Shown: piece after piece, positions 20,659 to 41,177 of the stretch | Position numbering within the stretch: position 1 is the first letter of the stretch | How the letters are laid out: every line of letters begins with the position of its first letter | From: Longimicrobiales bacterium | Lineage (GTDB): Bacteria; Gemmatimonadota; Gemmatimonadetes; Longimicrobiales; Gaopeijiaceae | Length of the DNA: 64,000 nucleotides | Direction: 5' to 3' | Assembly (NCBI GenBank): GCA_963664435.2 | Contig: CAXXKM010000002.1 | Span: 832,001-896,000 of the forward strand | Translations under genes and position numbers: made by a program | Notes under the pieces: model-generated | Database searches by the model: none | Told to the model about the DNA's origin: nothing | Seen by the model: the letters and a program-made list of their open reading frames with translations, nothing else

Positions 20659-20661
20659 GTG

Positions 20662-20870
20662 CTTTCCCTTTCTCCTGTGCTTGTCGTGCGAGCCTCGATG
20701 CTCAAGTATCCATTCAGGACGTGGGAAAGACGGTGGCGACCAAACTCCCGTACGGCCCTTGCGGCCAGCGACCCGACGGCCCGACCACCGTCTGTGCTGG
20801 ATGCCCGCTCCGGCTCGCTCCGCTCGCCTCTGCGGGCATCCAGCACACCGGGCCATCCCCGTGACCCGGA
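20662..20870 (-). ncRNA. IS110 bridge RNA (predicted; ends approximate)
   Basis: 16-bp 5' stem (20793-20808/20832-20847); two internal-loop hairpins carrying CGGGTCGCT/GGGAG (target guides) and ATGGATACT/GACAAG (donor guides). Confidence 0.8.
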
Positions 20871-21080
20871 CCTGCAAATCAAGCAGGGATCTCCAAGAAT
20901 GGAAGAGACAAGCGACCCGGGGCGGAGCGTGTCGGGATGTGTGCATCCCAACCTCTAGCCAGGCTCGAGCTGGACCCTCTCTGCCTCGGTCGGGGCCTTG
21001 GCAAGCCGGGGTGTGCGAGCACTAATCACGCCCGTGGATCCGCCACACGCGGCCGATGGACCGACAAGGAGGCTGTCGGA

Positions 21081-21989
21081 TTGACTAGCCACGAACGCGA
21101 CAACGCAAACAGGATCGGAAGGGCTAAGCGATGGGCTGGGCTGGCAATCGCCGTAGGTTCACGGCTCGCGGCCGTGCCCCGCTCCCTGGCCCAGATGCCC
21201 AATGAAGTCTGGCAGAAGCTGGCATCGCGCGGGACCACGATCAGTCCGGACGCCCTCTACGATCTCATCCCCGCGGGCGTAAAGACGGGGACCGACGATG
21301 TGCTGGCCTTCCTCGGGAAACGCGATCTCAGTCACATCAAGTCCAAGCACCGCCGACCAGATCTCGCGAACGACCCCACGAACGTTCTGTTCGAGAAGCG
21401 GTGGTGGAACCGCCGCCGCGGATCGCGGAACATGAAGCGGTGGGAAGTGACCCGCGCCCGGCTGGACAACTTCGCCGAGGGAGTGGTCAAGGGCGCGCGC
21501 GCCACTACAGTGGCAGCGGCCAAGGGGGCGATCCTGGGGGCTCTGATGGAATTGCCTGTGTCAGCCGCCGAGAATCTTGTTCTGGTTCGGGGCAGGGGTA
21601 AGAGCAGGAAGGAGGCGTGGACGGATGTAGCGCGCGACGTTGGCAGGAGTGCCGTGACCGGCGCGGCGGGAACCGTCGTGGCCACCGGAATCGCCATGAT
21701 CGGTGTTCCAATGGCTCCAGCAGTAGCGGTTCCGATTGCCGTGGTCGGGAGCACGCTCTACACATGGTCGGCAGCGGAACGGGTATGGAAGGCGCGAGCC
21801 AGGGTGGGATCGGCAGATCCGCCAGTGTTGGCTCGAGGATTTGATCCCGACTCTGCGCCGGACCTCTCGACGGACGGCTGGCCGGAGAAGTTTGCTAAAG
21901 CCCCCGTGCTTCGGGGGCTACCCTCCGATGGCGCGACCGAGAATATCTTTCCCCATCCGGTTGTCCCAGCGAGATACGGAGAACGGTGA
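21081..21989 (+). CDS. Hypothetical protein with an HNH-like motif and hydrophobic C-terminal helices
   Basis: RBS AAGGAGG with TTG start; DLSHIKS...DPTNVLFE...NRRRG; Gly/Ala-rich helices; GTGA overlap with the next gene. Confidence 0.6.
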   Translation: MTSHERDNANRIGRAKRWAGLAIAVGSRLAAVPRSLAQMPNEVWQKLASRGTTISPDALYDLIPAGVKTGTDDVLAFLGKRDLSHIKSKHRRPDLANDPTNVLFEKRWWNRRRGSRNMKRWEVTRARLDNFAEGVVKGARATTVAAAKGAILGALMELPVSAAENLVLVRGRGKSRKEAWTDVARDVGRSAVTGAAGTVVATGIAMIGVPMAPAVAVPIAVVGSTLYTWSAAERVWKARARVGSADPPVLARGFDPDSAPDLSTDGWPEKFAKAPVLRGLPSDGATENIFPHPVVPARYGER

Positions 21990-23266
21990 CCCCCAACGAA
22001 TTCATTGCGAAGTGGCACGCCTCGGAGCTGAAGGAGCGCTCCGCAGCGCAGGAGCACTTCATCGACTTGTGCCGCCTGCTCGACGAACCCACGCCAGCGG
22101 AGGCCGACCCGAAGGGCGACCACTACTGCTTCGAGCGCGGAGCGCTCAAGGACTCCGGCGGGGGAGGCTGGGCGGACGTCTGGAAGCGCCACTGCTTCGC
22201 CTGGGAGTACAAGGGGAAGCACGCGGATCTCGATGCCGCGTTCGATCAGTTGAGGCAGTACGCGCTCGCACTGGAGAACCCGCCGCTGCTGATCGTCTCC
22301 GACATGCGCCGGTTCCGGGTCCGGACGAACTGGACGAACTCCGTGAGCAAGACACACGAGTTTGGACTGGACGATCTCGCGGACGCTGCCGTCCGAGACA
22401 AGCTCAAGTGGGCGATGTCCGATCCCGAGCGGCTGCGGCCGGGGGAAACCCGGCAGACGCTCACGGAACGAGCCGCCGAGACCTTCGCGCAGCTCGCACA
22501 GTCGCTCCGAGTCCAGGGCCACGCCCCGCAGGAGGTGGCACACTTTGTCAACCGCCTCGTGTTCTGCATGTTCGCCGAGGACGTGGGTCTGCTCCCCAAC
22601 GCCATGTTCACTCGCATGCTCGAACACGCGCGTCAGCAGCCCGATGCGTTCGCGACGCTGGCGCGCGATCTGTTCGGGGCGATGTCCGTTGGTGGCCGGG
22701 TAGGGTTCGAGACCGTGGAATGGTTCAACGGCGGGCTCTTCGAGGATGACACGACCCTCCCCATGGACAAGGCCCAGATCGAGACGACCCTGAAAGCGTC
22801 CGGACTCGACTGGTCCAACATCGACCCCTCGATCCTGGGGACGCTGTTCGAGCGGGGCCTCGACCCCGACAAGCGCTCTCAGCTCGGGGCGCACTACACG
22901 GACCGGGACAAGATCATGCGGATCATCGACCCGGTGATCGTTCGTCCCTTGCTGGCCGAGTGGGAGACCGTGAAGGCGCGGATTGGAAAGAGCATCGAGC
23001 GCGCGAACGCGGCCAAGTCAAAGGGCGTGGAGACGCGCCACCGCAACCAAGCGGAGAATTCGCTCGGTGCGTTCCTGGAGCGGCTGCGGAAGTTTGCCGT
23101 GCTCGACCCGGCCTGCGGGTCCGGCAACTTTCTCTACCTGGCGCTCCACACCCTCCACGATCTGGAACACCGAGTGCAGCTCGAAGCTGAGGCGATGGGG
23201 CTCCAGCGCGGCTTCCCTTCGGTCGGTCCCGCGAACGTAAAGGGCATCGAGTTGAACGCCTACGCG
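21986..23266 (+). pseudogene. MmeI-like (type IIG/IIL) restriction-methyltransferase, 5' half, interrupted by element D
   Basis: WADVWK...WEYKG nuclease motif; LGAHYTD; motif I VLDPACGSGNFL; ends GIELNAYA at the core. Confidence 0.9.
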
Positions 23267-23362
23267 ACATGAGCACTTTGAGTCACATATCGTTGTGAGC
23301 GTGTAGCTTACGGGATTCGGGGGTCAGATTCCCGCTGATTGACTCCCGCCGATTGGTTTGGG

Positions 23363-24523
23363 TCAGGCGCGGACCCTCGGGCGACTGTCCAGAGCCTTCC
23401 TGAGTTGTCCGGCGTCGGCCTGCTGGTAACAGCGCAGCACCGTCTGGGCCTCCTTCCAGCCGCCCAACTCGCACAGCACCTTGAGCGGAAGGTCCATGAG
23501 ATCCGACGCGAACTTCCGCCTCAGCGAGTGCCAGCCTCTCCCTCGCTCGTGCTCCAGTCCCGCGAGCCGCTCGGCCTTATGCCACCAAGAGACTGCCCGC
23601 CCCCGGCTGATGCTCGATGATGGGTCCTGCGGCGCGGGCAGCACCAACGTCTCCCCGTTCCCGGGGTTCGCTTCCCGCGCCTCCTCCAGTACCGCGACCG
23701 CCTCATCGGTCATCGGCGTGACGTGCTCGTAGCCGGTCTTCTCGTGCTCGGCGCGCCACCGCACCTCGCGACCCTCGAAATCGATGTCCCCCCAACGAAG
23801 GTTGCGGATGGCCCCGATTCGGTGGCCGGTCTCATGGGCGAGCACGAACGCGACGTGGAACCTCCAATCGACCCGCCGGGATATCCCGAGCATCGCCTGG
23901 TACTCCTCCTCGGAGAGAACGACCCGGGTGGGGTTCTTCTCCTTGGGCGTCCTCAGGCCTCTGAGCGGGTTCGAGTCGAGCAGGAGTCTCCCCTCCTCGT
24001 CTCTGGATTTCGTTGCCCAGTTGAGCACCGCGAGCAGGAACTTCAGGTCCAACTCGATGGTGCGGTTGCCCACAGGCTTCCCGCTCGGTCCGATCCTGCC
24101 CGCCCGGCGCTCCCGGATGAAGCGGTCCCAATCGCGCTGGGACAGGGTCTCGGGCCTTCGGTCCCGCCCGAGGAAGTCGAGGAACATCCTTGTCCCGATT
24201 CTGTCCCGGTGCCGGACCCGCTCCGTCTTGGTGGGCGTCACCTCCTCACCGTAGATGTCAAAGAGCATCTCCAGCGTGAGCGGCTCGGGCTCGGCTTCCG
24301 CCTTGCCTTGGGTCGCGGGTCGAGCGAACCCGGCGGCGAACTCGTCAGCCTGCCGCTTCGCTTTCACCCAATCGCAATGCCCCAGCGACCGGGTGAGCCT
24401 TCGCCCGTTCTCGCGCCACTCAATCTGGAAGAGGCCGGTTTTCGGATCCGGAAAAACCCGGACCCGGTTCCGGCCCCACTCGCCGGCGCCGTAGCTCCGG
24501 CGGCTTCGTTTCGTGCGTGCCAT
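23363..24523 (-). CDS. Tyrosine integrase of element D (intact)
   Basis: ETGHRIGAI, HSLRR, LGGW, LRCY; RBS GGAGG. Confidence 0.93.
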   Translation of the reverse strand: MARTKRSRRSYGAGEWGRNRVRVFPDPKTGLFQIEWRENGRRLTRSLGHCDWVKAKRQADEFAAGFARPATQGKAEAEPEPLTLEMLFDIYGEEVTPTKTERVRHRDRIGTRMFLDFLGRDRRPETLSQRDWDRFIRERRAGRIGPSGKPVGNRTIELDLKFLLAVLNWATKSRDEEGRLLLDSNPLRGLRTPKEKNPTRVVLSEEEYQAMLGISRRVDWRFHVAFVLAHETGHRIGAIRNLRWGDIDFEGREVRWRAEHEKTGYEHVTPMTDEAVAVLEEAREANPGNGETLVLPAPQDPSSSISRGRAVSWWHKAERLAGLEHERGRGWHSLRRKFASDLMDLPLKVLCELGGWKEAQTVLRCYQQADAGQLRKALDSRPRVRA

Positions 24524-24667
24524 CGTTCGATACCTCCGATTCGATGGACTGCACGATCTGCGCGTTTGAAACCTCGCGCAGGGCTCGTCCGTCGTCCAGA
24601 GTTGGCGGTCCGGCCGGCTCTGGCGCGGGCGCGCCACGGGGGCGCTGGTTTCTGCGGTGTGTGGAGG

Positions 24668-24730
24668 AGCCAGATGTGTTTTCGCTTCACGAAAACCTCT
24701 GGCCGAGGGATGCCCCCGGACCCCCGAACA
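24668..24730. other. Putative oriT of element D
   Basis: Inverted repeat GCCAGATGTGTTTTCG...CGAAAACCTCTGGC upstream of mobC; the copy near 7270 has compensatory arm changes (GTTAACG/CGTTAAC). Confidence 0.55.
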
Positions 24731-24764
24731 ACATTCCGTGCGCCACCAAAGGAGGCCGCCCGAC

Positions 24765-25109
24765 ATGGCTCGTCCCCGGAAGCGCGACGCCGAGCGCAGG
24801 ACCCGCACGATCGGCGTGCGCGTCACAACCGCGGAAGCCGCCGAGATCGCCGAGCGGGCCGGAGCGGCCCGCATGACGAGGGGCGGCTACATGCGCCGCA
24901 GGGCGCTGGGGCAGCCGGTCCGCGAGGCAGCCGTTCACCGTCTCGGCGCTCGGGAGCGGGTCGAACTCCACCGGATCGGCGTCAATCTCAACCAGATCGC
25001 CCGCGCTCTGAACTCCGGGGCTTCTGCGCCGCCGGGGACTCTGGAGGCGGTCGAGCGGGTGGGCGAGCTTGCGGCCGATCTCCTGAGCGGCGAGGCGCTG
25101 GACCGATGA
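24765..25109 (+). CDS. mobC: MobC relaxosome protein
   Basis: RBS AAGGAGG; LHRIGVNLNQIAR; ATGA overlap with the relaxase. Confidence 0.88.
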   Translation: MARPRKRDAERRTRTIGVRVTTAEAAEIAERAGAARMTRGGYMRRRALGQPVREAAVHRLGARERVELHRIGVNLNQIARALNSGASAPPGTLEAVERVGELAADLLSGEALDR

Positions 25110-26308
25110 TCCCGAAGATCAACAGTCTGGGGCGCTCGTTCGCCGGTGCCGCGGCGTACTGTCTGCACGATTCCCCGACGCCGGACGACCGGAGTCCGGA
25201 GACCTCGGAGCGGGTTGCGTGGGCCGACACCCGCAACCTCGCGACGTTTCGGCCGGAGCGCGCCGCGCGGCTGATGGCCGCGACCGCGAAGGCGGCCCCC
25301 GACCTCAAGCGGCTGGCGGGGGCGGCGAGAGGGGGGCGCAAGCTGGCGAAGCCGGTGCTGCACTACTCGCTCAGCTGGGCGCAGGACGAGACGCCGGACA
25401 AGCGGGAGATGAGCCGCGCGGTGGACGAGAGCCTGGAGGCGCTCGGGCTGGAGGGCCACGAGGCGCTGGTCGTCGCACACGACGACACTCGGCACCCGCA
25501 TGTCCACGTGGTCGCCAACAGGGTCGATCCGGAGACCGGGAAGGCGGCGAAGCTGGGCAACAGCAAGCTCCGGCTGTCGCGCTGGGCCGAGGGCTACGAG
25601 CGGGAGCAGGGCCGGATCCGCTGCGAGGAGCGGGTCAGGAACAACGAGCGGCGGCGGGCGGGCCAAGAGGTGGTTCGAGGTCCGTCGAACCGGCCGCGCC
25701 ACTGGGCGCGCGTCCGCCGCGAGGGGTTGCAGCCCGGGCGGGCGAGGCGGGCGAGGAAGCCGCGCCGCGAGGATCAAGTCGACATGGAGGCATGGCGGCA
25801 TGCCGAGGCGGAGGCTTGGGAGACGGTCGCAGACGGGCGCGAGAGGGGCCTCCAGCACCTAGAGAGCCGGGCGCGCAAGGAATGGGCCGAACTGCACAAG
25901 CGGCAGGAGGAGATGCGGCAGAGGCTCGACCGGGAGAGCCGGACCGTGCTCGGGCGGCTCCGGATCTGGCGGCTCGAGCGCTCGCTCAGGGAACTGGTCG
26001 GTGCGGTCCGGGGCCGGGAGGATCTGGTCGAAGGCTGGCGCGAGGATCTCGCCCGGTACCACAGGGACGAGCGGGCCGAGTTAGGCAAGGCACACGGCGA
26101 GAGAGCCCGGGAGGTCGAGCGCCGTTCGCGCAAGTTCTATCGAAGCAGGCTGGTGGACGCGGAGCGGAACGCATGGGCGGTGCGGGAGAGGATGAGGGAG
26201 CGCCAGGAAACGAGGGAGCGGGAGTGCGGCCCGAGCATCGTCATCACCGTTCCCCGGCCGCCCCGGCCCCGAGGCCCCGAGCGTGGCGGTGGAGGGTTCG
26301 AGCGATGA
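25106..26308 (+). CDS. Relaxase/mobilisation nuclease (MOBP-like, not MbeA-type)
   Basis: GRSFAGAAAYCLHD, PVLHYSLSW, AHDDTRHPHVHVVANRV. Confidence 0.88.
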   Translation: MIPKINSLGRSFAGAAAYCLHDSPTPDDRSPETSERVAWADTRNLATFRPERAARLMAATAKAAPDLKRLAGAARGGRKLAKPVLHYSLSWAQDETPDKREMSRAVDESLEALGLEGHEALVVAHDDTRHPHVHVVANRVDPETGKAAKLGNSKLRLSRWAEGYEREQGRIRCEERVRNNERRRAGQEVVRGPSNRPRHWARVRREGLQPGRARRARKPRREDQVDMEAWRHAEAEAWETVADGRERGLQHLESRARKEWAELHKRQEEMRQRLDRESRTVLGRLRIWRLERSLRELVGAVRGREDLVEGWREDLARYHRDERAELGKAHGERAREVERRSRKFYRSRLVDAERNAWAVRERMRERQETRERECGPSIVITVPRPPRPRGPERGGGGFER

Positions 26309-26670
26309 CTCTTGGCTCCTCGTTCATCGCCAAGTGAGTCGTTCCAGAACGGCCGAATCCAGAGCGGTCTTGGCGCATGTCTTAGGGGCTCTGGGGGTCG
26401 CCCACGATCGACGATCGCCGACCTCCGAAGGGTGCGCGGGTCGGTAGAGTAGGGCTCCAGCACAGCCTCGACGAGGAACCGAGGGGATCCCGAAGCGGAC
26501 CCCGATGGCTGCCGGGCTCTCGCCCTGAGCTAGCGCCATCCTCGCCCGGTCTTTCGCGACGAGATCGTCGAAGCCCGAGACTGCCTCGATGGCATGGATG
26601 GTCGGAGCACGGTAAAATATGGTTTAGTGTTCCGTTCCCCCTGACTCCCGGTTCCCCCCGCTCCGAGCGG

Positions 26671-27093
26671 TTGACCGCGAGCCCATGTCATGCACGTTGG
26701 AGGGTTCCCTTGCGCCGAGCCATTGATTCTCACACGAAGTACCTGGAACGGGTTGAACAACTGATCCCGACAAAGGTCGTCGGGGGGCACTTGGCCATCC
26801 AGGGATTGGTCTACAACCAAATCACGATGCGGGACCTTGCCATCGAGATCTCGGCCGGAGTGTTCCTCATTGCTCTCTTTTTCTATCTCCGACATGTGGG
26901 AGCGACGTGGAAGCGGATCGCCCTGACGATAGGGAGCTTCGTGGCGTGGGTTCTCGCAGTCAGCCTCCCCGTCCACCAGAGACTCGGAATCGACCCGCTT
27001 TGGGGATCGATCATCCTGATCCTGTGGTCTGCAGCGACTGGCCTTCTTGATGCGGACGATATGGCAGCAAGCGGGGGCACCCAAGGAGGGTGA
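26671..27093 (+). CDS. Small multi-pass membrane protein (start uncertain)
   Basis: YLERVEQLIPTKVV followed by 3-4 hydrophobic helices. Confidence 0.55.
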   Translation: MTASPCHARWRVPLRRAIDSHTKYLERVEQLIPTKVVGGHLAIQGLVYNQITMRDLAIEISAGVFLIALFFYLRHVGATWKRIALTIGSFVAWVLAVSLPVHQRLGIDPLWGSIILILWSAATGLLDADDMAASGGTQGG

Positions 27094-27097
27094 CGGG

Positions 27098-27883
27098 ATG
27101 ATGCGCATCTGGCTGTCCCTCGTGGCGGCGGTGGTTCTGCTAGCCCCCCCAGCTCGGGCGCAGGATTTTCTGGAGCCCGACCGAATCACTAACCGCACGC
27201 GATTCTACGCTTCCCCGCTCGGAACTCTGGCTTTCCTTCCGCAAGTCACGAGGTCTGAGAACGCCAAGTACGCTGGTCAATGGGATTTGCTCGTCGAGAG
27301 CGGACGGTACAGGATTGCCCCAAGCGGTCAGTATTGCTTTGTCCTGAACCACCGGGATCGCGCCCAGGAGGGGAGACCTTCATATGTCGTCATCGGAGCC
27401 ATTTCCGTCCTCCCTTCTGGAACTCGACCGGCGCGCCCCACTTCGATGTTCAGGAATCCGGGATGGTCACGAAGTGATGACCCGGAATACTCTCGCGAGA
27501 ACGGTTTGCCGAAGCACGTATCACTAACGCTGGAGACGTTCGTCGGAGCGCATGATCGGAGTGAGCTTGAGGAGAACGACCGGCTCTTGACTCACCGTTG
27601 GCATGGTGATTTTGGCGGTGGGGAGTCGTGGGTGGATCGCGATTTGTGGGTCGAAGCGGCTTCGGTCGAGCCAGAGGTGATTGCCGGCTTGGCGGGAGAC
27701 GAAGGACGACCCGATTTGCGATTCGACGCCAAACTCCTCCGGTTTACCTTCACGGCGAAACGCAATTCCGATCAGCCCGTTGCATTCTGCATGGAAGGTG
27801 ATCGCCGAATCGCCACCATCGTGACGGTGTTCAGCCCGCACTTCCACGTGGCGGAGAGACGGTTCGAGCTGGTCTTCCGGTAA
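27098..27883 (+). CDS. Hypothetical secreted protein
   Basis: RBS AAGGAGG; signal peptide ending ARA-Q. Confidence 0.65.
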   Translation: MMRIWLSLVAAVVLLAPPARAQDFLEPDRITNRTRFYASPLGTLAFLPQVTRSENAKYAGQWDLLVESGRYRIAPSGQYCFVLNHRDRAQEGRPSYVVIGAISVLPSGTRPARPTSMFRNPGWSRSDDPEYSRENGLPKHVSLTLETFVGAHDRSELEENDRLLTHRWHGDFGGGESWVDRDLWVEAASVEPEVIAGLAGDEGRPDLRFDAKLLRFTFTAKRNSDQPVAFCMEGDRRIATIVTVFSPHFHVAERRFELVFR

Positions 27884-28234
27884 ACAATCACGCTCGGGGT
27901 GGGGTCTTGCGGTTAGGGCGTTCGCGAGGCGCTCCGTTCACCCCGTTGCGCGGATGGTGGATCGATTCGCTGGCCTCCTGTCCGAGAGGCGGCGCGAGAC
28001 GCTGCCGCGCCTGCCGATACGGACCTGGGCTGGAAGTTTGCCGAGGCGAGTGCCTCGGCCCTTGATCGTTCCCCAGCCCGCATCCCAGCGAGCGCGGGCC
28101 AGCAAGGTCGCGGGTCTGCCCACGCTTCCCCTACCTTACCCGTTCAAGTTCGAAAAAGTCGGATACTGAACACGCTGACCGTCCGGGGACCGGTCGGCCC
28201 CACAATCACCCGGAAGGCATACCCGCCAGACCTC

Positions 28235-31200: not shown

Positions 31201-31540
31201 AGAGGTGAAGGACGTTTCAACAGCGCGGCTCGCCAGGAAGGCGGGGCTGGGGGACCACCCCGGCTTCGACCTTCTGGCGGTGGGTGCCGATGGCGAAAAG
31301 CGCCACATCGAGGTGAAGGGCCGATCCGGTCGGGACGAAGTGTGGATGGAGGAGAACGAGTACCGGAAGGCCTGCAATCTCCGCCAGGACTACTGGCTGT
31401 ACGTCGTCCTGGATTGCGCCTCGTCCGTTCCGCGCCTGTCGCGGGTGAGGGATCCATTCTCAAAGCTGTTGGCGAAGCAAACGACCCGGATGAGGATTTC
31501 TGCGGGAGAGGTGCTGAGGGCGGCCGAGGCCGAGGAATGA
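28235..31540 (+). CDS. SNF2-family helicase with C-terminal DUF3883-like nuclease domain
   Basis: LLADDAGAGKT, DEAH, TATPH, EGINLQ, QRMGRIHRYGQ; GFDLL...IEVKGR. Confidence 0.92.
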   Translation: MDPPPLDFNGDPERLSLFVERLRLQHGYQFNPAFASEISRIDPLPHQRSAVYDHMLGEDPLRFLLADDAGAGKTIMTGLCVRGMLMRGRIRRVLIVPPAGLVGNWEQELRNLFRLRFRIVSGPDVRMGNPFSGPDSDRVIVSVDTLWGESAFEALAHPETDPYDLVVFDEAHKLSASAERGRVRKTQRYKLAEALAGCPPPAEYSALAWSARHLLLLTATPHMGKDSPYHHLWRLLDHRVFGAEEAFKRAGPATRAHHFVRRTKEEMVDFDGKPIFRERHCDTFGYDLSPGTDGERALYDRTTFYLLHTYNLASGNQQAARLAMGVFQRRLVSSTWALLKSFERRIGKLGQMVDHLEAGRLDLTGLRSAQGALTAKYSADYFDAHDASDDMDDDTRRERSADYEDSVLGAVVAVSAEELREEIKTLEDLSGRARRLVESGHESKFERLREVLEHPGQGEEKWLVFSEHRDTVDYLIERLEGLGYAGLVASIHGGMTWQEREEQVERFRDSNGARFLVATDAAGEGINLQFCRLMVNYDIPWNPARLEQRMGRIHRYGQKHDVRIVNLVSTDTREGRVLQVLLERLDAIRRELHSDKVFDVIGRLFENESFSEYMRDAMSDEGERRSRVRLEAGLAPGAVSDIDARERRRYGGGGDVARRLPTMRDAIDRERYLHLLPANVRRFVERACPLLGLRVRGNLDKTFSLVPSRAGALDPLLQGLETYPADARERLRVRRPAENERCVWLHPGEPVFDAMSDEVAARCREDAFRGAIYIDPRAESPCLLHLGEIGVNEEAADTNSSARETLSRELAVLRQDEDGVVSKVSLEAFAFLQNADHVPPGAVPLAARAATLRTGAATRLEEEAERLARERRAALEAELPERRRRVGINFNLRAAELADRRSALSKSARADPDERERVVREQKALGEQRALTFEELSAAPRRIVPGHVRFLAHALVLPATGDEEREAFDADVERTAMAIATLWERSRGAEVKDVSTARLARKAGLGDHPGFDLLAVGADGEKRHIEVKGRSGRDEVWMEENEYRKACNLRQDYWLYVVLDCASSVPRLSRVRDPFSKLLAKQTTRMRISAGEVLRAAEAEE

Positions 31541-31696
31541 TGACCGCTGCCGTTGCCCGAGCGGCGACCGGAGGTTGCCACGGGGCGCCGGCGGCATGAA
31601 CAATTCACCGTGCCTGGCCGCTCGTCTCCGAGCGACCCAACGACCTCCACGCCGCCTGTTGGCGGGTGCCCCGAGCGAACCCGAGTCCAAGGTGCG

Positions 31697-34600
31697 ATGA
31701 CCCGCCTCTCCGAAACTACGATTCCGCTTCGGCAGATCTCCCTCGACTCGGTCCACGAGAAGCACGTCCGCCACGGCCACATCTCAACGCTCCATATCTG
31801 GCCTGCCCGGCGTCCTCTGGCGGCCAGCCGCTCCATGCTATTGGCGACCCTGCTGCCGGATCCCGGCGACGCGGAAGAGCGGCGACGCTTGGCCGAACTC
31901 TTGGGCGGCCGTCTTGTCCCGAAGAAGCTCAAGGGCGGTGGGGAGGACCCGCACCTAAAGGAGACCGACGGGGGCATTCTCCACTGGGGCCGGGAGAACA
32001 GCTTGGAACTCGACCGTTTCCGGGCGCGCATCCGCGAAGCCTTCGGCGGCCGCGCGCCCCGCGTCCTCGATCCCTTCTCCGGTGGCGGTGCGATCCCGCT
32101 GGAGGCGATGCGGCTCGGCTGTGAGACGTTTGCGGCGGACCTGAATCCCGTCGCGTGGTTTGTGCTGCGGTGTACGCTTCACTACCCGCATCTGGTCGGT
32201 CCGGGCGATGGGACGCTCCCCGGCTTCGCCATAGCCGACCGGGATTTCGCCACCGCTCTGGTGAAGGCCCGACTCAAATCCCAAGGTGTGAATCACACAC
32301 CGGCCCGAATCCGAAATGCCCTTGCTGAATTCGGCCATCGTGACGGGGGCGACGTGCAGCTCACCACTGCTCTGGCCGCCGCTGCGCCCACGGGCGCGAA
32401 CTTTGCTTGGCACGTGAGGGCGTGGGGGTTCCGGGTCCGGGACCGCGTGCGCCGGAAGCTGGCCGCGCGGTATCCGGTGTATGCCTACTTCGAGCCACGG
32501 CGGCGGAAAGGGCGCGGGAGGAAGGCGGTTGGACCGCTGATCCCGTTCAGAACTCGAGCTCCCCGCCTGCTAAGGCCTGATTCGCAGGGACAGGTGTCCG
32601 TCGAAGCTCTGAACCGCGAGTACGACCGGAGGTACCTCGAAGACGACCGGAACCCGCGCTGGGTCGCCAAGCCGGTTGTCGCCTGCCTGTGGGCACGCAC
32701 GGCCGAGTGTGGGGGGTGCCGCTCCGAGATACCCCTACTCAAGACACGGTGGCTGTGCAAGAAGAGCGACCCGGTCAAGCGCGTCCTGCTGTCGATGGAC
32801 GCGGACGCCGATTCCCGCCGTGTCGACTTCGGAATCGAGTCGGACGTGCCCCTATCGACTGGCTCGGCGGCGCAGAAGCGCGCTCAAGACCAGAGGCTGG
32901 GCAAGGGGGCCATGAGCCGCAGTGGCGCCACCTGCCCCTGCTGCGGGGCGGTAACCAAGATGAAGGAGTTGCGTGCGCAGGGGCGGTCGGGACGGTTGGG
33001 TGTCCGAATGACTGCCGTGGTGATCGACGGGCAGAAGGGAAAGGAGTACCGGCTGCCAACAGACGACGATCTGGCCGGGGCGCAGGTGGACGCGGATGAG
33101 ATCGCAGCGCTGTACGAAGCGATTCCGTTCGGGCTGCCAGGTGAACAGACGCCGAAGGCGGGCATGGGAGCTTCGCGGGCGTTTTCTGTTGACGGGTACG
33201 GCTTCGATACTTGGGGCACTCTGTTTACCGACCGGCAATTGCTCGCGCTCGGCACGATTCTACGCGAGATCCGCGACGTGCGCGAGGAGATCGCTGAGCA
33301 CGGCTACCCTGAAGAGTGGCAAGAAGCGCTGACGGCATATCTGGCATGCACCCTGAGCAAGCTCGCCGACTACAGCAGTTCCATCTGCTCTTGGAACAAC
33401 AGTGGGGAGAAGCTCCGCCAGACCTTTGCCCGGTTCGCCCTTCCGATGGTCTGGGACTATTGCGAGGTGAACCCGCTTTCGGCTACTACGGGCGGGTTCA
33501 TGGCGATGCTCGACTGGGTCGCCCGCTATCTGGACCACGGGCTGGCCGCCGTTGCGGATGGTCCGGCCCCGGACATCGCTGCGCGTAGCGCCCTCGCTTC
33601 CCAGCCCGGAACCCTCGATCTCGTCTGCACAGATCCGCCCTATTACGATGCGATCCCCTACTCCGACCTGATGGACTTTTTTCAGGTTTGGCTGCGGCGA
33701 GCGCTCCGTGGCGTCTCGCCCGAGATCGATGAAGTTTTCGCCGATCCGCTTGGCCCCAAGTGGCAGACGGCGGACGGGGACGGCGAACTCATCGACGACG
33801 CCAGCCGGTTCGGAGGCGACCCGGAGGCGTCCAAGAAGAACTATGAGGACGGGATGGCTCGGGCCTTCGCCCGGTGCCACGACGCGCTACGGGATGACGG
33901 ACGCCTCGTGGTGGTGTTTGCCAACAAGGACCCGGATGCTTGGGAGACCCTCGTAGCGGCGCTTGTTCGCTCTGGATTCATGGTGACCGGCTCCTGGCCC
34001 ATCCAGACCGAGATGCAGACCCGGCAACGGGCCATGGCGTCCGCTGCCCTCGCCTCATCCATCTGGCTCGTCTGCCGGAAGCGTACCGCCACCCGACCCG
34101 GGTGGGAATCCAACGTGCTCGGCGAGATGCATGAGAAGATCACCGGCAAGCTCCGCGACTTCTGGGATGCGGGCATTCGCGGACCTGACTTCGTGTGGTC
34201 GGCCACCGGCCCCGCGCTTGAGGCATTCAGCCGGTACCCGGTGGTCAAGCGCGGTGTCGGCGAAGGGGAAATGCAGGTCGGGGAGTTCCTTGCGAGCGTC
34301 CGGCGCATGGTGGTCGGCTTCGTCGTGGGGCGGCTTCTGTCGCAGAGCGATGGCACCGCTGGCGACCTCGACGAACTCACGACCTACTACCTTCTGCACC
34401 GGCACGACTTCGGGATGGACGGAGCGCCGGCGGGTGCCGTCATCCTCTACGCAATGTCGTGCAACTTCAAGGACGCCGACCTGCTCGGCCGTTACGACCT
34501 GCTGGTGCGCGGGAAGGCCAGTCAGGGCGATGAAGATGCGGCCGGAGGATCGGACAGCGAGTTCCGACTCAAGCGTTGGAGCCGGCGGAAGGCCGGGTCG

Positions 34601-34867
34601 GGCGGGACAGATGGAGAAGTAACCCCGCTGATCGACAGCCTCCACGGGACCATGCGCCTCTGGAGGAAGGGGGATCTGGCTCAGGTTAACGAGTTCTTGG
34701 ACGCGCGAGGGCTACGTAAGAGCGAAGTGTTCGCAAGCGTCGTGCAGGCCGTGCTGGAGATGGCCGCGCCGGGGTCCGAAGAACGGTCCACGCTGGAGAA
34801 GCTCCAGAATCATCTCGGCAGGGGAAGGCCCTCCGGTCGCGTCCGCGATGCCACGCTGTGGGATTAG
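31697..34867 (+). CDS. DUF1156-domain adenine DNA methyltransferase with Zn ribbon
   Basis: TLHIWPARRPLAASR, DPFSGGGAIPLEA, TDPPYYD, CxxC pairs. Confidence 0.92.
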   Translation: MTRLSETTIPLRQISLDSVHEKHVRHGHISTLHIWPARRPLAASRSMLLATLLPDPGDAEERRRLAELLGGRLVPKKLKGGGEDPHLKETDGGILHWGRENSLELDRFRARIREAFGGRAPRVLDPFSGGGAIPLEAMRLGCETFAADLNPVAWFVLRCTLHYPHLVGPGDGTLPGFAIADRDFATALVKARLKSQGVNHTPARIRNALAEFGHRDGGDVQLTTALAAAAPTGANFAWHVRAWGFRVRDRVRRKLAARYPVYAYFEPRRRKGRGRKAVGPLIPFRTRAPRLLRPDSQGQVSVEALNREYDRRYLEDDRNPRWVAKPVVACLWARTAECGGCRSEIPLLKTRWLCKKSDPVKRVLLSMDADADSRRVDFGIESDVPLSTGSAAQKRAQDQRLGKGAMSRSGATCPCCGAVTKMKELRAQGRSGRLGVRMTAVVIDGQKGKEYRLPTDDDLAGAQVDADEIAALYEAIPFGLPGEQTPKAGMGASRAFSVDGYGFDTWGTLFTDRQLLALGTILREIRDVREEIAEHGYPEEWQEALTAYLACTLSKLADYSSSICSWNNSGEKLRQTFARFALPMVWDYCEVNPLSATTGGFMAMLDWVARYLDHGLAAVADGPAPDIAARSALASQPGTLDLVCTDPPYYDAIPYSDLMDFFQVWLRRALRGVSPEIDEVFADPLGPKWQTADGDGELIDDASRFGGDPEASKKNYEDGMARAFARCHDALRDDGRLVVVFANKDPDAWETLVAALVRSGFMVTGSWPIQTEMQTRQRAMASAALASSIWLVCRKRTATRPGWESNVLGEMHEKITGKLRDFWDAGIRGPDFVWSATGPALEAFSRYPVVKRGVGEGEMQVGEFLASVRRMVVGFVVGRLLSQSDGTAGDLDELTTYYLLHRHDFGMDGAPAGAVILYAMSCNFKDADLLGRYDLLVRGKASQGDEDAAGGSDSEFRLKRWSRRKAGSGGTDGEVTPLIDSLHGTMRLWRKGDLAQVNEFLDARGLRKSEVFASVVQAVLEMAAPGSEERSTLEKLQNHLGRGRPSGRVRDATLWD

Positions 34868-34962
34868 CCGACTTGAGAGGGTTCGCGTGCATCCGGTAGA
34901 TTGCTTGCCACCGACAGAGATTGACCGTCCGCGGTGACGATGGCCGCCGCAAGGAGTTGCAA

Positions 34963-35253
34963 ATGTTAGCCAGTGAGGCCGTTCAAGCGGCAAAGGACTA
35001 CGTCCTGGACCTTTTTGAGGACGAGAAGATCGCCCGCGTTGGACTGGAGGAACTTGAGTTCAGGGCTGAGGATGGCATATGGGAAGTCACGATCGGCTTT
35101 CAGCGCCTGTGGCAAACCGACTCTCCCGACCGATTGGGCAATGTCCTTCTCCCGCCGCCCGCGAAGCCCGGCCGGACCTACAAGACCGTCTGCATACACG
35201 ACGACGGGACGGTCGTCTCCCTGAAGCACCGCGATGTCTCCGTCCCGGCCTGA
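34963..35253 (+). CDS. Small acidic hypothetical protein (possible partner of the PIN protein)
   Basis: RBS AAGGAG; LEELEF...WEVTIGF...RTYKTV; overlaps the PIN gene. Confidence 0.7.
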   Translation: MLASEAVQAAKDYVLDLFEDEKIARVGLEELEFRAEDGIWEVTIGFQRLWQTDSPDRLGNVLLPPPAKPGRTYKTVCIHDDGTVVSLKHRDVSVPA

Positions 35254-35734
35254 CGGAGTCCATCCAAGCGGGGTCTTCGTAGACGCCAACCTTCTGGTGC
35301 TGCTCGTCGCGGGGGCGCTGGATCCAGAAATCATAGCTCGGCACCGGCGGTTACGGACGTTCGCATCCGAAGACTTCGCGCGCGTGCGGGAGATGGTCGG
35401 TCGCTTCGAGCGTGTTCTGGTCACGCCCAACACGCTCACGGAGGCATCGAACTTGTTGGGGCAGCACCGCGAGCCGGAGAGGTCCCGCCTGTTGACGACT
35501 CTTCGCTTCCTGATCGGCGAGAGCCACGAGGTCGTCGTGGCGAGCGCCAAGGCGGCCGGGCACCCGTCCTTCCCCCGGCTCGGCCTGACCGATGCGGGGC
35601 TGCTGCGTCTCGTCTCGCGGGACACGCCCCTCGTCACCGTGGACCTCGACCTCTACCTTGCCGCATCGAAAGCGGATCCGTCATCGGCCGTCAACTACCG
35701 TCATCACCAAGAGCGATACGCTCGATCCAACTGA
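35234..35734 (+). CDS. PIN-domain protein
   Basis: VFVDANLL, TPNTLTEASN, LGLTDAGL, LVTVDLDL. Confidence 0.85.
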   Translation: MSPSRPDGVHPSGVFVDANLLVLLVAGALDPEIIARHRRLRTFASEDFARVREMVGRFERVLVTPNTLTEASNLLGQHREPERSRLLTTLRFLIGESHEVVVASAKAAGHPSFPRLGLTDAGLLRLVSRDTPLVTVDLDLYLAASKADPSSAVNYRHHQERYARSN

Positions 35735-35760
35735 TTCCAGCCACGCCCCGCTAGGACGCC

Positions 35761-38700
35761 ATGCCACCCGCTCTCACCCCTTGGCACCATGCCGTAACGC
35801 TCAAGTCCGAGTTGCGGACCGGGGAGTTATCGCTGTCACAGTTCGCCGCCGACCTCCACGAAGTGGCGAGCCGGGCCGGTCGGCGTCCCCTGTACGAGGA
35901 TCCCGAGAAGTTCTTTGCCCTGACCTATCCCACCTTCGCGCTGCGCGACTTGGCCCGTGACGTGGCCGCGCGGCTGGCGGGACGGAGCGACAAGGCGGTC
36001 CGCCAGCTGGAGATGACCTACGGCGGGGGCAAGACCCACACGCTCATCACCCTGCATCACCTCTTTCGCGATCCAGACCACCTTCCCGATCTCAAGACTG
36101 TCCGTGAATTCCGAAAGCACTCTGACGTTGAACTCCCCAAGGCCGCGACCGCAGCGCTCTGCTTCGACAAGATCGACGTGGAACAAGGGATCACGGATGT
36201 GCGCGGACCCGGCGGCGAGACCCGTGCGCTGCGGCACCCATGGAACATCCTCGCTTTCCAGCTCGCGGGCACCGACGGACTCCGGATCCTGCACGGCGAC
36301 GACTCCGCCGAGGAACGCGACACGGCTCCAGCGGAACCGTTGCTGGTCGAGGTGATCGAACGGCAACAGAAGGCCGATGGACGGGCGACGCTGATCCTTC
36401 TCGACGAGGTGATGATGTACGCCCGCGCACAGGCCGCACGGGACCGGACGTGGGTGGACAGGCTTCAGAATTTCTTTCAGGCCCTCACGCAGGCGGTCGC
36501 CAAGGTGGACCGGGCCGCCATGGTGGCCTCGCTGCTCGCGACCGACCCGGCGAAGACGGGCGACGAGCTTGGCAAGGGCGTGCTGCGGGATCTTGCCAAC
36601 ATCTTTCAGCGCCAGCGCGAAGAGGGAATTCAGCCGGTCCAGAAGGAAGACGTGGCTGAGGTGCTCCGGCGTCGGTTCTTCGAACCCGGAAGCATCGAGG
36701 ATCCGGCTTCGTTCCGACCGCATGTCATCGGGGTGGTGAAGGGCATCGCCAAGATCGACGAGACCACGAAGGGCGAGCAGAAACGGGCGGAGAAGCGATT
36801 TCTGGCGAGCTTCCCCTTCCACCCCGATCTGACGGATGTGTTCTACACCCGTTGGACGGAGATCGAGGGATTCCAGCGGACGCGCGGCATCCTGCGGACG
36901 CTGGCCATCGCACTGCGGGACGCGGAAGAGCGGGGCGACCCGAGCCCGCTGATCGGGCCGTCCGTCCTGTTGAACCGATTGGGGGCGGGCACCGTTTCCG
37001 AGGCGGTCAGAGAACTGGCCGGAATCGCGACCAAGGACACGGTGAAGGGGAGAAGGACGGAATGGATTCCGCTTCTTGAGAAGGAGATGGAGATCGCCCG
37101 CGAGGCTCAGGACGAAGTTCCTTCCCTCAGCGCTTCTCGGGAGTTGGAACAGGCGGTCGCGACCGTCTTCCTCCATTCACAGCCGGTCGGACGGAAGGCG
37201 AGGACCAGCGAGTTGCTCCGACTCGTGGGAGGGGCCGGACCCGACTCAATCGAGTTGCGGAAGGGCCTTCGGCGGTGGCGCGATACCTCCTGGTTCCTGG
37301 ACGACGAGGACGAAGACGCTCAAGTCGAGGACACCGACAGCCTGCCCGGGACATGGCGACTCGGCAACGCGCCCAATCTGCGCCAGATGCACGATCAAGC
37401 GTGCCACGACCGGGTGACCGCCGACGCGGTCGATGAACGTCTCAGAACGGCAATCGGCAAGACCGCAAGTCTCTGGAACGGTGCACAGGCCGCCGGTGCC
37501 ACCGTCCACAAGCTGCCCCGTTCTCCCCGCGACGTGGGCGACACGGTTCAGTTCCGATTCGCGATCCTTGGCCCGGAGGCCGCTTCGTCGTCCGGCAAGC
37601 CCAGCAAGGTGGCCCGGAGTTTCCTCGACCACGCCGCCGGCTCCGACAGTCCGCGGGTGTACCGCAACGCCTTGGTGTTGGTGGTGCCGTCCCCGGAAGG
37701 GGTGGACGCCGCGCGCAGCAAGACTCGAAGCCTCTTGGGATGGGAAGACGTTGAGACGCAGCTCACCGCGCGTTCCATCGACCCCGTCCGCCGCGAGCGC
37801 CTGCGCCGCAACATCAGGCAGGCGGCGGCCGAACTTCCGGGCGTGATCCGGCAGGCCTACGGAATCGTCGTGACCGTCAACGAACGAAATGGAGTCCATG
37901 CCTTCAAGCTACCGGGAAGCAGCCAACTCCTGTTCGAGGAGGTCAAGAACCACGAAAAGGCCCGGATCGTGGACACGCCCGTCAACCCCGAGGCGCTCCT
38001 TCCCGACGGGCCGTACGGCCTCTGGGAGGAAGGAGACGACGCTCGTCTCGCCAGCCAGTTGAGCGAAGCGTTCGCCCGCTTTCCCCGACTCCCGAAGGTG
38101 CTCAAGCCGGAGTTGGTCACCCGCACCGTCCTCGGGGGTGTGCGCGAGGGGCTGCTCGCAGCCCGGCTGAGACGTCCCGACGGCAGCGTCCGGACTTGGT
38201 GGTGGGAAGATGTCGAGGCCGTGGCGGCGGCCGACGCCCAGCTTGAAATCGTCCTTCCCGACAAGGCGCAGCTTGCCCGGCTGGACCATCGACTGCTCAG
38301 GCCCGGCGTGTTGCCGGACCTGTGGACCAGCGGCGACGACGAGCCCTTCGAGCCCTTGTCCGCCAATGTGCTGCTGAAGTACTTCGCTGGTGGACATGTG
38401 GCGACCATCGCGAAAGAGAGCTACGAGGACCACCTGCCGATCCCAGCCTGCCGCGACGACATCTTGTTGGAAGCGGTGAACGAAGCGGTGGCGGACGGGA
38501 CGTTGTGGGTCACGAACCCGCCCGCGACGGTCTGGAAGGAGCCGGTCCCCGCCGGGACTCTCAGCCCGAACGCCGAGTTGCGCCCCCCTCCGGAGCCGGT
38601 GGCAGCCCAGGACCTTACCGAAGGCGCCCTGCCAGAGGCTTGGTCGGAGAACCGGACCAGCGGTCTCTCGTTGACCCAAGCCCTCGGCCAGAAACGATCC

Positions 38701-39072
38701 GAAGCGGTCCCGTGGGGAGTCGTGCGCGAAGGAATCGCCGCCGCAGTCAATACCCGCTGGCTTCTCCGAACGGCGGACAGCGGACCCATCGAGTGTACCT
38801 ACGACCAAGCCCACAAGGTGATCCTTGAGAAGCCGAAGCTCGGCAAGAGGCCCAAACCTCCGCAAAAGGCCACTCCGGTCGCGGCAGAACTGGATGCGGC
38901 GCAAATGCAGGACTTGGCTGACCGGGCACCCAACCTGCTGGCCGCAATCGGCGCGGCCGAGTTGCGGTTTGGCGTACATGTGAGAGCGAGCGACGAAGTT
39001 GCGGACGAAGACCGCGAGCGGGTCAACGAGATCCTTGGCGAAGTATCACCAGGACTCAAGCTCGCGAAGTGA
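35761..39072 (+). CDS. DUF499-family AAA+ ATPase
   Basis: TPWHHAVTLK, FAADL, YGGGKTHTL, ILLDE, SFPFHPDL, FQRTRGILR. Confidence 0.92.
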   Translation: MPPALTPWHHAVTLKSELRTGELSLSQFAADLHEVASRAGRRPLYEDPEKFFALTYPTFALRDLARDVAARLAGRSDKAVRQLEMTYGGGKTHTLITLHHLFRDPDHLPDLKTVREFRKHSDVELPKAATAALCFDKIDVEQGITDVRGPGGETRALRHPWNILAFQLAGTDGLRILHGDDSAEERDTAPAEPLLVEVIERQQKADGRATLILLDEVMMYARAQAARDRTWVDRLQNFFQALTQAVAKVDRAAMVASLLATDPAKTGDELGKGVLRDLANIFQRQREEGIQPVQKEDVAEVLRRRFFEPGSIEDPASFRPHVIGVVKGIAKIDETTKGEQKRAEKRFLASFPFHPDLTDVFYTRWTEIEGFQRTRGILRTLAIALRDAEERGDPSPLIGPSVLLNRLGAGTVSEAVRELAGIATKDTVKGRRTEWIPLLEKEMEIAREAQDEVPSLSASRELEQAVATVFLHSQPVGRKARTSELLRLVGGAGPDSIELRKGLRRWRDTSWFLDDEDEDAQVEDTDSLPGTWRLGNAPNLRQMHDQACHDRVTADAVDERLRTAIGKTASLWNGAQAAGATVHKLPRSPRDVGDTVQFRFAILGPEAASSSGKPSKVARSFLDHAAGSDSPRVYRNALVLVVPSPEGVDAARSKTRSLLGWEDVETQLTARSIDPVRRERLRRNIRQAAAELPGVIRQAYGIVVTVNERNGVHAFKLPGSSQLLFEEVKNHEKARIVDTPVNPEALLPDGPYGLWEEGDDARLASQLSEAFARFPRLPKVLKPELVTRTVLGGVREGLLAARLRRPDGSVRTWWWEDVEAVAAADAQLEIVLPDKAQLARLDHRLLRPGVLPDLWTSGDDEPFEPLSANVLLKYFAGGHVATIAKESYEDHLPIPACRDDILLEAVNEAVADGTLWVTNPPATVWKEPVPAGTLSPNAELRPPPEPVAAQDLTEGALPEAWSENRTSGLSLTQALGQKRSEAVPWGVVREGIAAAVNTRWLLRTADSGPIECTYDQAHKVILEKPKLGKRPKPPQKATPVAAELDAAQMQDLADRAPNLLAAIGAAELRFGVHVRASDEVADEDRERVNEILGEVSPGLKLAK

Positions 39073-39096
39073 TTCGCGCCACCTACCGGCGGCGGG

Positions 39097-39238
39097 GATT
39101 CCCGCCAACCGACCCCGATTTTCCCGCTTTCGTGACCTGATCGGATCGGATGCGGTCCAATGGCAGGAGTGGCAGATCGTGCAGTCCTGGTTAGACTTAC
39201 GTGATCTCCTGCCGTGATGTTGGCCGTTAGAAATCCGC
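39097..39238 (-). repeat. Distal end of element D
   Basis: GATTCCCGC 39097-39105; box 39170-39184; GCCGTGAT 39211-39218; exactly 20 bp to the core. Confidence 0.88.
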
Positions 39239-39245
39239 CTACGCG

Positions 39246-40826
39246 GCCGAACTGGCGCGTGTGTCGGTGTGGATCGGTGAAATCCAGTGGATGCGCCGCA
39301 ACGGGTTTCCAGGTGCGCGGCAGCCCGTGCTCGACCCGCTGGAGACGATCGAGTGTAGTGACGCAATCGTGACGCCGGAGGGTGGAGAGCCGGAGTGGCC
39401 CGACGCGGATGTCATCATCGGCAACCCTCCGTTCCTGGGCGGCAAGCTGCTCATCACGAACCTCGGCGAGGAATATGTCTCGACCATGTTCGACGTGTAC
39501 AATGGCCGGGTGCCGCGCGAGGCCGATCTGGTCTGCTACTGGTTCGTGAAGGCTGGCGACCATCTGGAGGGAAGGAGCTCGACAAGGGTTGGCATGGTGG
39601 CGACCAACTCCATTCGGGGTGGTGCCAACCGGCGGGCGCTGGAGAAGGCGACGGACGGCAGGCCGATTTTCGACGCTTGGAGCGACGAGCCGTGGGTGAT
39701 CGATGGAGCGGCCGTGCGGGTCTCGCTGATTTGTTTCTCGCAAGCGGACGACGAGCTCATCGCGGCGGTTCGGTTCGACGGCGCGCCGGTGGACGAAATC
39801 TACACGGATCTGACGGCGCGCCGGGACGGGGCTGGGGTCGACCTGACAAAGGCGCAGCGCCTCTCCCGGAACGCGGGCGTTGCCTTCATGGGCGACACCA
39901 AGGGCGGGCCGTTCGACGTTCCAGGTGACCTCGCCAGGGAGTGGCTGCGGGAGCCAGCCAATCCCAATGGCCGCCCCAACTCGGACGTACTCAGGCCTTG
40001 GATGAACGGTATGTCCATCACCCGACGGCCTGCCGACAAGTGGATCGTTGACTTCGGCTTGACCATGGTGAGGGAGGAAGCCGCCCTGTACCAAACTCCC
40101 TTCCAGCACGCCCAGGAACACGTCCGGCCCACATGGAAGGGACAACGGGCAGCCGGGAGACGAAATCAGTGGTGGTTGCACCACCGGCCACGACCGAAGA
40201 TGTGGGGGGCTCTCGATGGGCTGGAGCGGTACATCGTCACGCCCACCGTCGCCAAGTATCGCCTTTTCGCCTGGCTCGATATCCGGATCTGCCCTGACCA
40301 CCAACTGATCGTCATCGCCCGCGACGACGACACCACTTTCGGGATCCTGCACAGCCGATTCCACGAAGTTTGGTCGCTCCGCAAAGGCACTTGGCAGGGC
40401 AAGGGCAACGATCCCCGCTACACTCTCACGACGACATTCGAGACCTTCCCCTTTCCAGAAGGACTCTCACCTGACGTGCCTGGCAGCGACTACCTCACGG
40501 ATCCACGCGCGCAGGCCATCGCTTCTGCAGCGCGGCGACTCGTCGAACTCCGGGAACGCTGGCTCCACCCTCCGGAGTGGGTGGAGTGGGTCGAGGAACC
40601 TGTTTCCGGCTATCCCCGGCACCCGGTGCCGCGTGACGAGAAAGCCGCAATCGCGCTCAAGAAGCGGACCCTGACCAACCTCTACAACGCCCGGCCCCAG
40701 TGGCTCGTCGACGCTCATGCTCAGCTCGATGCGGCCGTGGCGGCCGCCTACGGGTGGCCCACCGACATCACGGACGACGCGGTGTTACGCGAACTGCTTA
40801 TCCGAAACGGCGCGGAAGGGCACTGA
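39246..40826 (+). pseudogene. MmeI-like restriction-methyltransferase, 3' half
   Basis: AELARVSVWIGEIQW; motif IV IIGNPPF; ADLVCYWF; TNSIRGG; FETFPFP; LDAAVAAAYGW. Confidence 0.9.
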
Positions 40827-40952
40827 CGCAATCTGTCGGGGGGTAGCGAGTGTCAGCCCACAAGATGTTGTGGCGGGGCTTGAACAGCCCTCCGGAATCC
40901 GGTAGAATACCGATCCTTTTCCTGAACCTCGTAGCGAAGGAGTAATTTCGTA

Positions 40953-41177
40953 ATGGGTAACAGTCACCACGTAGTGCCGAATCCGGATGGCGGGTGGGAC
41001 GTGAAGCGCTCGGGGGCGTCGCGAGCCAGCCGTCACTGCGACACGAAGGCGGAAGCTGTTGACGTTGGCCGGGAGATCAGCCGCAACCAGCGCACCGAGT
41101 TCGTCGTTCACCGGCAGAATGGAACCATCCAGCGGAAGGACAGCCACGGCAATGATCCGAGGCATATCCCCGGCTGA
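40953..41177 (+). CDS. DUF2188-domain protein
   Basis: HHVVPNPDGGWDVK...HRQNGTIQRKDSHGNDP; RBS AAGGAG. Confidence 0.88.
   Translation: MGNSHHVVPNPDGGWDVKRSGASRASRHCDTKAEAVDVGREISRNQRTEFVVHRQNGTIQRKDSHGNDPRHIPG

Follow-up and report, generated by a model that had tools for sequence, protein, structure and literature searches.

The window analysed here is a 64,000-nucleotide stretch from the genome of a Longimicrobiales bacterium (source genome G000; contig and positions C2:832001-896000), and positions below are those of the window unless a contig is named. A 15,979-bp insert, which we call element D, lies inside an MmeI-like (Type IIL/IIG) restriction-modification (R-M) gene and cuts it in two. 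D carries a tyrosine integrase, a relaxase and anti-phage cargo related to Hma and BREX, and it is best explained as an integrative mobilisable element of a family that is abundant in sponge-associated Longimicrobiales (Gemmatimonadota). One of the sequencing runs that hold matching pieces is a sponge metagenome.

The 5′ half of the R-M gene (21986..23266, plus strand) encodes a PD-(D/E)xK nuclease, a helical spacer and methyltransferase (MTase) motif I; the 3′ half (39246..40826, plus strand) encodes motif IV, the target recognition domain and a C-terminal bundle. The N-half frame runs two codons into D, the open reading frame (ORF) ending at 23272, and the C-half is open for 528 codons counted from the attachment (att) site. 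The N-half ORF (21986-23272) matched the Pfam families MmeI_N and MmeI_hel and positions 5-74 of MmeI_Mtase, while the C-half matched positions 136-211 of MmeI_Mtase and, weakly and below the cut-off, MmeI_TRD. Together the halves cover the PADLOC Type IIG model PDLC03627 over 2-470 and 557-1018. An intact orthologue matched a single solved structure, that of MmeI (PDB 5HR4; E 3.7e-39), and nuclease, spacer, MTase, target recognition domain and helical bundle are combined in a single chain that has the PD-(D/E)xK, motif I and NPPF signatures, the makeup of the MmeI family.

The insert is bracketed by 10-bp direct copies, attL (23257..23266, plus strand) and attR (39236..39245, plus strand), which contain the overlap CTACGCG at 23260-23266 and 39239-39245; its length of 7 bp is deduced from sister junctions, in which nothing but these 7 bases is common to both sides. 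The initial annotation of this DNA had proposed that joining 23266 to 39246 gives an uninterrupted 953-aa ORF, and in silico removal of the 15,979 bp yielded 2,862 nt encoding 953 aa with zero internal stops. The junction aligned without an indel to 7/7 intact homologues listed, and, as far as removal in silico can tell, precise excision would restore the frame. The separation of motif I (residue 374) from motif IV (NPPF, at about 39424) likewise stood up, and the MmeI domain map (accessible part of PMC4833311) was used to place the break between them. Because the two motifs are in different halves, neither half should methylate, and the split gene is predicted to make no active enzyme. The recognition domain appears to lie entirely within the C-half. 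It was also correct that neither half contains a stop, yet little can be read from that here, since a strain without the element is 99.7% identical in the N-half and the separating event is therefore recent.

The left end of D (23267..23362) contains two arm-like repeats at 23327 and 23341 and is followed by the 386-aa integrase gene (23363..24523, minus strand). The protein retains the R-K-HxxR-W-Y set, which we take to be the catalytic residues of tyrosine integrases, and is one of 28 near-full paralogues in the genome, 66-85% identical. A 16-bp motif (24546..24561) adjoins the integrase gene upstream, and an inverted copy at 39172 lies in the right end (39097..39238), together with an arm-like repeat at 39097. 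By analogy with lambda-type integrases, the arm-like repeats at the two ends are putative integrase arm sites; the earlier description of D as having an intact integrase and both ends agrees with what we found. Copies of the 16-bp motif occur at 5849, 7150, 11060, 12455, 24546, 39172, 45234 and 62132, in right ends and just 5′ of integrase genes, which makes it a candidate site for a regulator or directionality factor; at ~7140, an element has inserted directly next to a copy of it.

Mobilisation functions are represented by a MobC/MobA-like protein (24765..25109, plus strand; below the curated cut-off) and a 398-aa MOBP-type relaxase (25112..26308, plus strand), and no type IV secretion system (T4SS) conjugation genes were found within D. 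An integrase with intact residues, relaxase and mobilisation genes without a T4SS, a shared att core and an empty site in relatives are features expected of an integrative mobilisable element and present here. A family-less 278-aa hypothetical protein (27047..27883, plus strand) has a 90% identical copy elsewhere in the genome. The cargo proper, all on the plus strand, consists of an HmaA-like SNF2 helicase with a NOV_C nuclease (28235..31540), an HmaB-like DUF1156 adenine MTase in which motifs I and IV are present (31553..34867) and an HmaC-like DUF499 AAA+ ATPase with Walker A and B (35761..39072), the best PADLOC matches being HmaA, HmaB and HmaC, respectively. Helicase-nuclease, DUF1156 MTase and DUF499 ATPase thus occur together, as in Hma or Type-1 BREX-related (BR) systems; the NCBIfam DUF1156 and DUF499 equivalog cut-offs were not reached. 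Between hmaB and hmaC are two small genes, of 110 and 166 aa (34921..35734, plus strand), the longer of which lacks a library match but is, from a motif, taken to be PIN-like. The pair is unannotated, is conserved in genome G005 and may be a toxin-antitoxin or accessory defence module.

Recurrent occupation of the att site and evidence of excision

Among 314 family genomes, the site pattern was matched 23 times in 21 genomes, with 6 copies occupied and 17 empty; in metagenomes, 1/28 homologous loci was occupied, and 1/29 matches was unrelated. The site is occupied in eight records (G000, G002, G007, G115, G116, G117, L225 and L076). The initial annotation had asked whether relatives carry the intact gene and whether the site is hit repeatedly. 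Both are the case: 17/23 family copies are intact, and the split alleles are spread over at least three C-half clades, interleaved with intact alleles, as expected of independent hits. On account of this interleaving a single ancestral insertion was rejected, although repeated precise loss would give the same pattern. The occupying elements differ in their ends and in their cargo (Hma, GmrSD-like, IIG+HKD-SNF2 or type I). Seven of the eight split C-halves are open for 524-528 codons, and that of L225 is frameshifted and stops at 142. With L225 left out, dN/dS was 0.18 for split-split pairs versus 0.16 for intact-intact pairs, values that cannot discriminate between recent insertion and functional restoration.

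L225 is a record titled Bryobacterales, and it carries a D-type element end at the site. A Bryobacterales-titled genome has four MmeI-like N-halves, one of them 94% identical to that of the window (L225, G102), and the case may reflect cross-phylum transfer or a binning error. On contig G102:C9 (L229, L237), an MmeI-like allele that is empty at att is interrupted 174 nt further downstream, where an unrelated 4.3-kb insertion lies.

Four of the 22 sequencing runs listed were examined, all as contigs, in which 15 of 58 joints were visible. Three runs contained G000-identical stretches of both the gene and the cargo, plus roughly 96-99% identical D-like cargo. Run X3 lacked D cargo, and one of its contigs corresponded to 22559-23256 (2/698 differences) continuing directly to 39236-39946 (121/711 differences, 4 gaps). 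An empty allele exists, that is, in a near-identical strain, its N-half 99.7% and its C-half 83% identical to those of the window. No empty or circle junction was found among 55 ends with flank; viral contigs gave 0 matches to the right-end pattern and no circle junction, and plasmids gave one weak match. Two candidates for attP were rejected: an attP-like junction at C3:817 is 3 nt too short to be a clean attP of D, and G003:C155 is actually an insertion at a gene start. In G002, the N-half contig stops exactly at the overlap.

Recombination of allele halves

Trees of the N-half and C-half are discordant, with six N/C clade combinations among 7 alleles. Measured from the overlap, informative sites placed breakpoints at -3..18 (G004/G140) and -8..9 (G102:C9); in G002, whose halves come from two contigs, the breakpoint lies at -33..-24 nt, with an interval to +24. 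A post-hoc binomial for breakpoints at att gave 6e-4 to 4e-3, for triplets that are the best of many and non-independent. Compared with G000 alone, G102:C9 does not switch at att, as the two sequences grow more divergent from roughly -300 onwards; it is better parents that place the break at -8..9.

Concordance of left and right pairwise distances was then computed at 32 split points for 18 alleles, one short and two near-duplicate alleles having been dropped. With 300-nt windows, concordance was lowest at att (rho 0.30; next 0.33, at +600). Conservation does not single out this point: the att window is only 16th-17th of 213, and at two blocks of higher conservation, -370 and -710, concordance remains near 0.5-0.7. 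The att site is a preferred point of recombination between allele halves.

At positions equivalent to MmeI base contacts, residues differ among C-halves. Because these putative recognition residues differ, half swaps should change specificity. The halves of G000 group as in G110, G120 and G146, and excision in the source strain would probably restore a cognate enzyme; no C-half closely related to that of G000 turned up, the differences numbering 99 or more in 711 nt. Single genomes can contain several alleles (G102, G103/G115). An element-assisted swap of the specificity half is plausible, and its likeliest route would be recombination between D-type elements in two such co-resident alleles and then precise excision. 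RecA-dependent crossing at a conserved block is a less likely route.

Range of targets and excess in methyltransferase genes

The 7-bp overlap varies by integrase clade, as judged by junction comparison, and integrases with the CTACGCG overlap of D are 8/8 monophyletic (support 0.944) and 88-99% identical. Scanning all of GTDB for the right end together with the overlap yielded 58 matches; 3 non-element ends and 3 at contig ends were dropped, and the 52 ends kept formed 35 clusters and 34 sites (one DinB variant was merged by eye). Twenty-six of the 34 sites lie outside MTase genes, in PD40, DinB, TMEM164, P450, transporter, peptidase and surface-protein genes. Gene-specific targeting of the MmeI-like gene was accordingly rejected, same-clade ends being found at DinB, PD40, TMEM164, peptidase, transporter and other sites. 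Elements whose Hma cargo resembles that of D (84% and 88% identical across 6 kb) occupy two other targets, a type III Mod gene and one unassigned site.

DNA-MTase genes nonetheless account for 19/52 ends and 8/34 sites, which amounts to a partial preference only. By ends, these are the MmeI-like gene (5), an Eco57I/PglX-like gene in antisense (4), HmaB at two positions (3 and 1), the C-terminus of a IIG gene (3), and type III Mod, type ISP and one fragment, two of the eight assignments being weak. As a background, DNA-MTase ORFs make up 0.68% of G000, which has 10 exact GC-overlap-GC sites and 82-185 looser attB-like sites, and hold 2/82 to 2/185 of the loose sites (1.1-2.4%). Elements of the clade of D are in roughly 10- to 30-fold excess in DNA-MTase genes. 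Binomial p values for the site excess, which overstate it given that the records are related and not independent, were 1.1e-6 at the 2.4% background, 1.1e-5 without the focal site and 1.4e-4 without the weak sites.

Whether they come from MTase genes or from other sites, the integrases are 88-99% identical. The MTase matches differ in frame and strand and have no common reading frame or protein motif, and MTase genes not chosen via the site contained no further attB-like sites. Because of both observations, we read the excess as selection or hitch-hiking and not as targeting. A partner-gene control gave 0 identified matches in helicase, ATPase or REase-only genes (p about 0.04); because only 3 sites lie in non-fused systems, MTase-specific loss is inseparable from whole-system loss. 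A link between GmrSD-like cargo and MTase targets was dropped, the counts (3 vs 1) being too few. At one locus (L179, G005:C1:4689674), a D-type element lies inside an HmaB gene 87% identical to the cargo MTase of D itself.

Discussion

The split gene is, in our judgement, probably the outcome of selfish integration that favours R-M genes, specificity shuffling being a probable by-product, and not a host-regulated on/off switch. The integrases of the D clade keep to one 7-bp overlap and are lax about its flanks, which opens tens to hundreds of sites per genome to them. The MTase excess would arise after integration, the disarming of a resident or incoming R-M system being tolerated or favoured, and R-M genes travelling on other mobile elements would spread the composite. 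Occasional precise excision may restore the full gene. Were D-type elements in two co-resident alleles to recombine and then excise, the N-half of one allele would be left joined to the C-half of the other, and the C-half so joined would bring another recognition domain and hence a change in specificity.

A number of observations weigh against this interpretation. No excisionase gene was identified, and neither an empty junction with the source strain's own C-half nor a circle junction was present among the 15 of 58 joints. Other breakpoints fall at +136, +250-285 and -915, and at +197 in distant alleles; with 200-nt windows, att is a local minimum (0.27), and three other split points are as low or lower. 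About 8 sites lack a gene identification, and against a 10% island-only background the MTase excess is modest (p 0.017, or 0.12 without the weak sites), and here too the relatedness of the records makes the p values overstate it. The bias is also not family-wide: only 1/47 right-end matches in G000 lies in an MTase gene, and the other clades there show no such preference. The full length of 7/8 split C-halves and their intact-like dN/dS also fit functional restoration.

A bolder possibility, which we entertain tentatively and think rather less likely, is that this promiscuous integrase lineage is a hunter and editor of restriction systems, both silencing and reprogramming host specificity. Elements would be selectively retained in MTase genes that belong to rival systems (R-M, Hma, type III and ISP), which they would disarm on entry. 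At the hot spot in the MmeI-like gene, much as with a mobile intron, the element might supply portable homology or att recombination between ~80% identical alleles, and precise excision would leave the gene chimeric but in frame, its recognition half new.

The shuffling itself might be what is selected, the att site being maintained since element traffic reassorts nuclease and recognition halves and so provides the population with new restriction specificities. The six N/C clade combinations among 7 alleles, the att breakpoints in three allele groups, the empty allele that differs at 2/698 positions ahead of the site and at 121/711 beyond it and the differing recognition residues among C-halves would all follow from this. 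The conserved block around the site, however, could equally serve as a crossing point for ordinary homologous recombination, the recognition domain is reshuffled internally as well, away from att, and the X3 breakpoint is not placeable at base level; we regard a selected shuffling device as unlikely. We think even less of the proposal, put forward in the initial annotation, that D is a reversible switch between methylation or defence states; in its regulated form, cue-driven excision would turn the MmeI-like enzyme on and Hma off, with re-entry at the same site. The junction is indeed precise and in frame, 7/8 split C-halves are intact with purifying dN/dS, 6/23 copies are occupied, and the G002 contig that ends exactly at the overlap hints, weakly, that the sequence continues in two ways in that sample. 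A switch, though, calls for a dedicated target, and here 34 sites are used, 26 of them outside MTase genes, while 10 exact and 82-185 looser sites in G000 would compete for re-entry. The cargo at the site varies and is unrelated between occupants, and D-like Hma cargo occurs at two other sites too; one split allele is frameshifted and has decayed, another copy is broken by the unrelated 4.3-kb insertion, and no empty or circle junction appeared in the visible joints, the 55 flanked ends or the viral contigs. A regulated switch is therefore very improbable.

The fallback offered alongside the switch, a recent insertion that disarmed a restriction barrier, is closer to the data, except that the MTase bias and the half-swapping speak against a one-off event. 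Pure chance, in the form of an unbiased element of low specificity, or else an assembly artefact, could explain a short degenerate target and the many non-R-M sites; the same junction in 7 other assemblies, the G000-identical pieces of gene and cargo in three runs and the MTase excess have largely refuted both, and we give them the least credence of all.

Selfish integration into R-M genes has a precedent. YeeA proteins are presumably MmeI-like. Streptococcal integrative and conjugative elements (ICEs) of the Tn1806/ICESan95 type integrate in YeeA-domain, Eco57I methylase and snf2 genes, splitting them, and they nest in other mobile elements and excise (PMC12942858; PMC7563491, accessible parts). 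They resemble D in inserting into MTase genes, in cutting the gene in two and in nesting. As described there, these ICEs are conjugative and use triple serine integrases and a 4-bp repeat, whereas D has one tyrosine integrase, relaxase and MobC only and a 7-bp overlap, and its clade meets MTases in different frames and strands, plus 26 other sites. The accessible parts of the two reports contain no mention of half-swapping. Elements that interrupt the genes of other elements have been discussed as regulated gene integrity and helper-embedded satellites (PMC10111431, in part); there, too, a gene is interrupted, no replacement sequence is carried and another mobile element is targeted, but the target is dedicated and excision regulated, while the D clade has many targets.

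The split gene shares domain order, nuclease motif and motifs I and IV with the MmeI family, Type IIL (PDB 5HR4; PMC4833311, in part), but it is distant in sequence, and its best PADLOC model is the separate IIG family PDLC03627. As far as the available text goes, Hma or Type-1 BR is a three-gene system (PMC11232893; PMC12839542), and the cargo of D agrees with it in the SNF2 helicase-NOV_C nuclease, the DUF1156 MTase, the DUF499 ATPase and the small genes between B and C. The cargo is not of the four-gene form, MANTIS/Gao_RL or Type-2 BR (10.64898/2026.09.23.753747, in part): the small ORFs of D gave no match to a DUF3780/MtsB-type fourth gene, a search that a very divergent copy would escape. 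No closer case is present in the available parts of PMC11529989 or PMC13626063, and we found no paper on the element family of D or on att-centred half-swapping in a search that left out most subscription papers. The theme is known already; in the literature searched we came across neither the att-centred swapping nor a version that has a tyrosine integrase, is defined by its overlap and uses many sites.

The locus offers a testable case of mobile elements remodelling defence islands by knocking out resident MTase-based systems, and not only by adding to them. If the att-centred swaps are element driven, they would let new Type IIL specificities arise even from alleles that have diverged too far to recombine readily by homology; if they are ordinary recombination, the site is a well-documented hot spot with streptococcal precedent.

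The element family and the surrounding region

D and its R-M gene probably lie within an older host element of the same family (11313..45295, boundaries approximate), of which the R-M gene would be cargo. Its integrase (11313-12569) lacks the C-terminal catalytic part, and the pairing of this integrase with its right end rests on the tRNA-Pro-type target that a sister integrase shares. A dense defence island in the window (15991-18627, 18800-19477, 19657-20946, 42236-43036 and 45867-47738) encodes a GmrSD-like nuclease, an NYN protein, an IS110, an HNH nuclease and a DRT4-like reverse transcriptase. Two small mobilisable elements (12572-14140 and 4019-5391) have in common an inverted 1.4-kb relaxase region (87% identical) and 42-bp repeats.

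G000 as a whole contains 28 near-full paralogous integrases and 47 right-end matches, and the flanks of the family copies include tRNA genes, palindromic repeats and the integrase genes of other elements. So many related integrases with many targets in one genome are a natural set for studying the evolution of target choice. Other clades of the family target tRNA-Val or tRNA-Pro (identity judged by eye), and several target short palindromic repeats, not genes (window 11125; G000:C1:12767, 1358765, 1440969 and 1470906; C3:409584 and others). Family copies also lie inside sibling integrase genes, near codon 47-58 (G000:C2:113922-111670, C1:1572352-1570118, C2:1091375-1091548 and C2:129333-129506), where the left end gives an ATG in frame with the truncated sibling. 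At G000:C3:543-953, D-type left and right ends stand head-to-tail beside a 56-codon integrase fragment, a junction that we read as the scar of imprecise left-right recombination.

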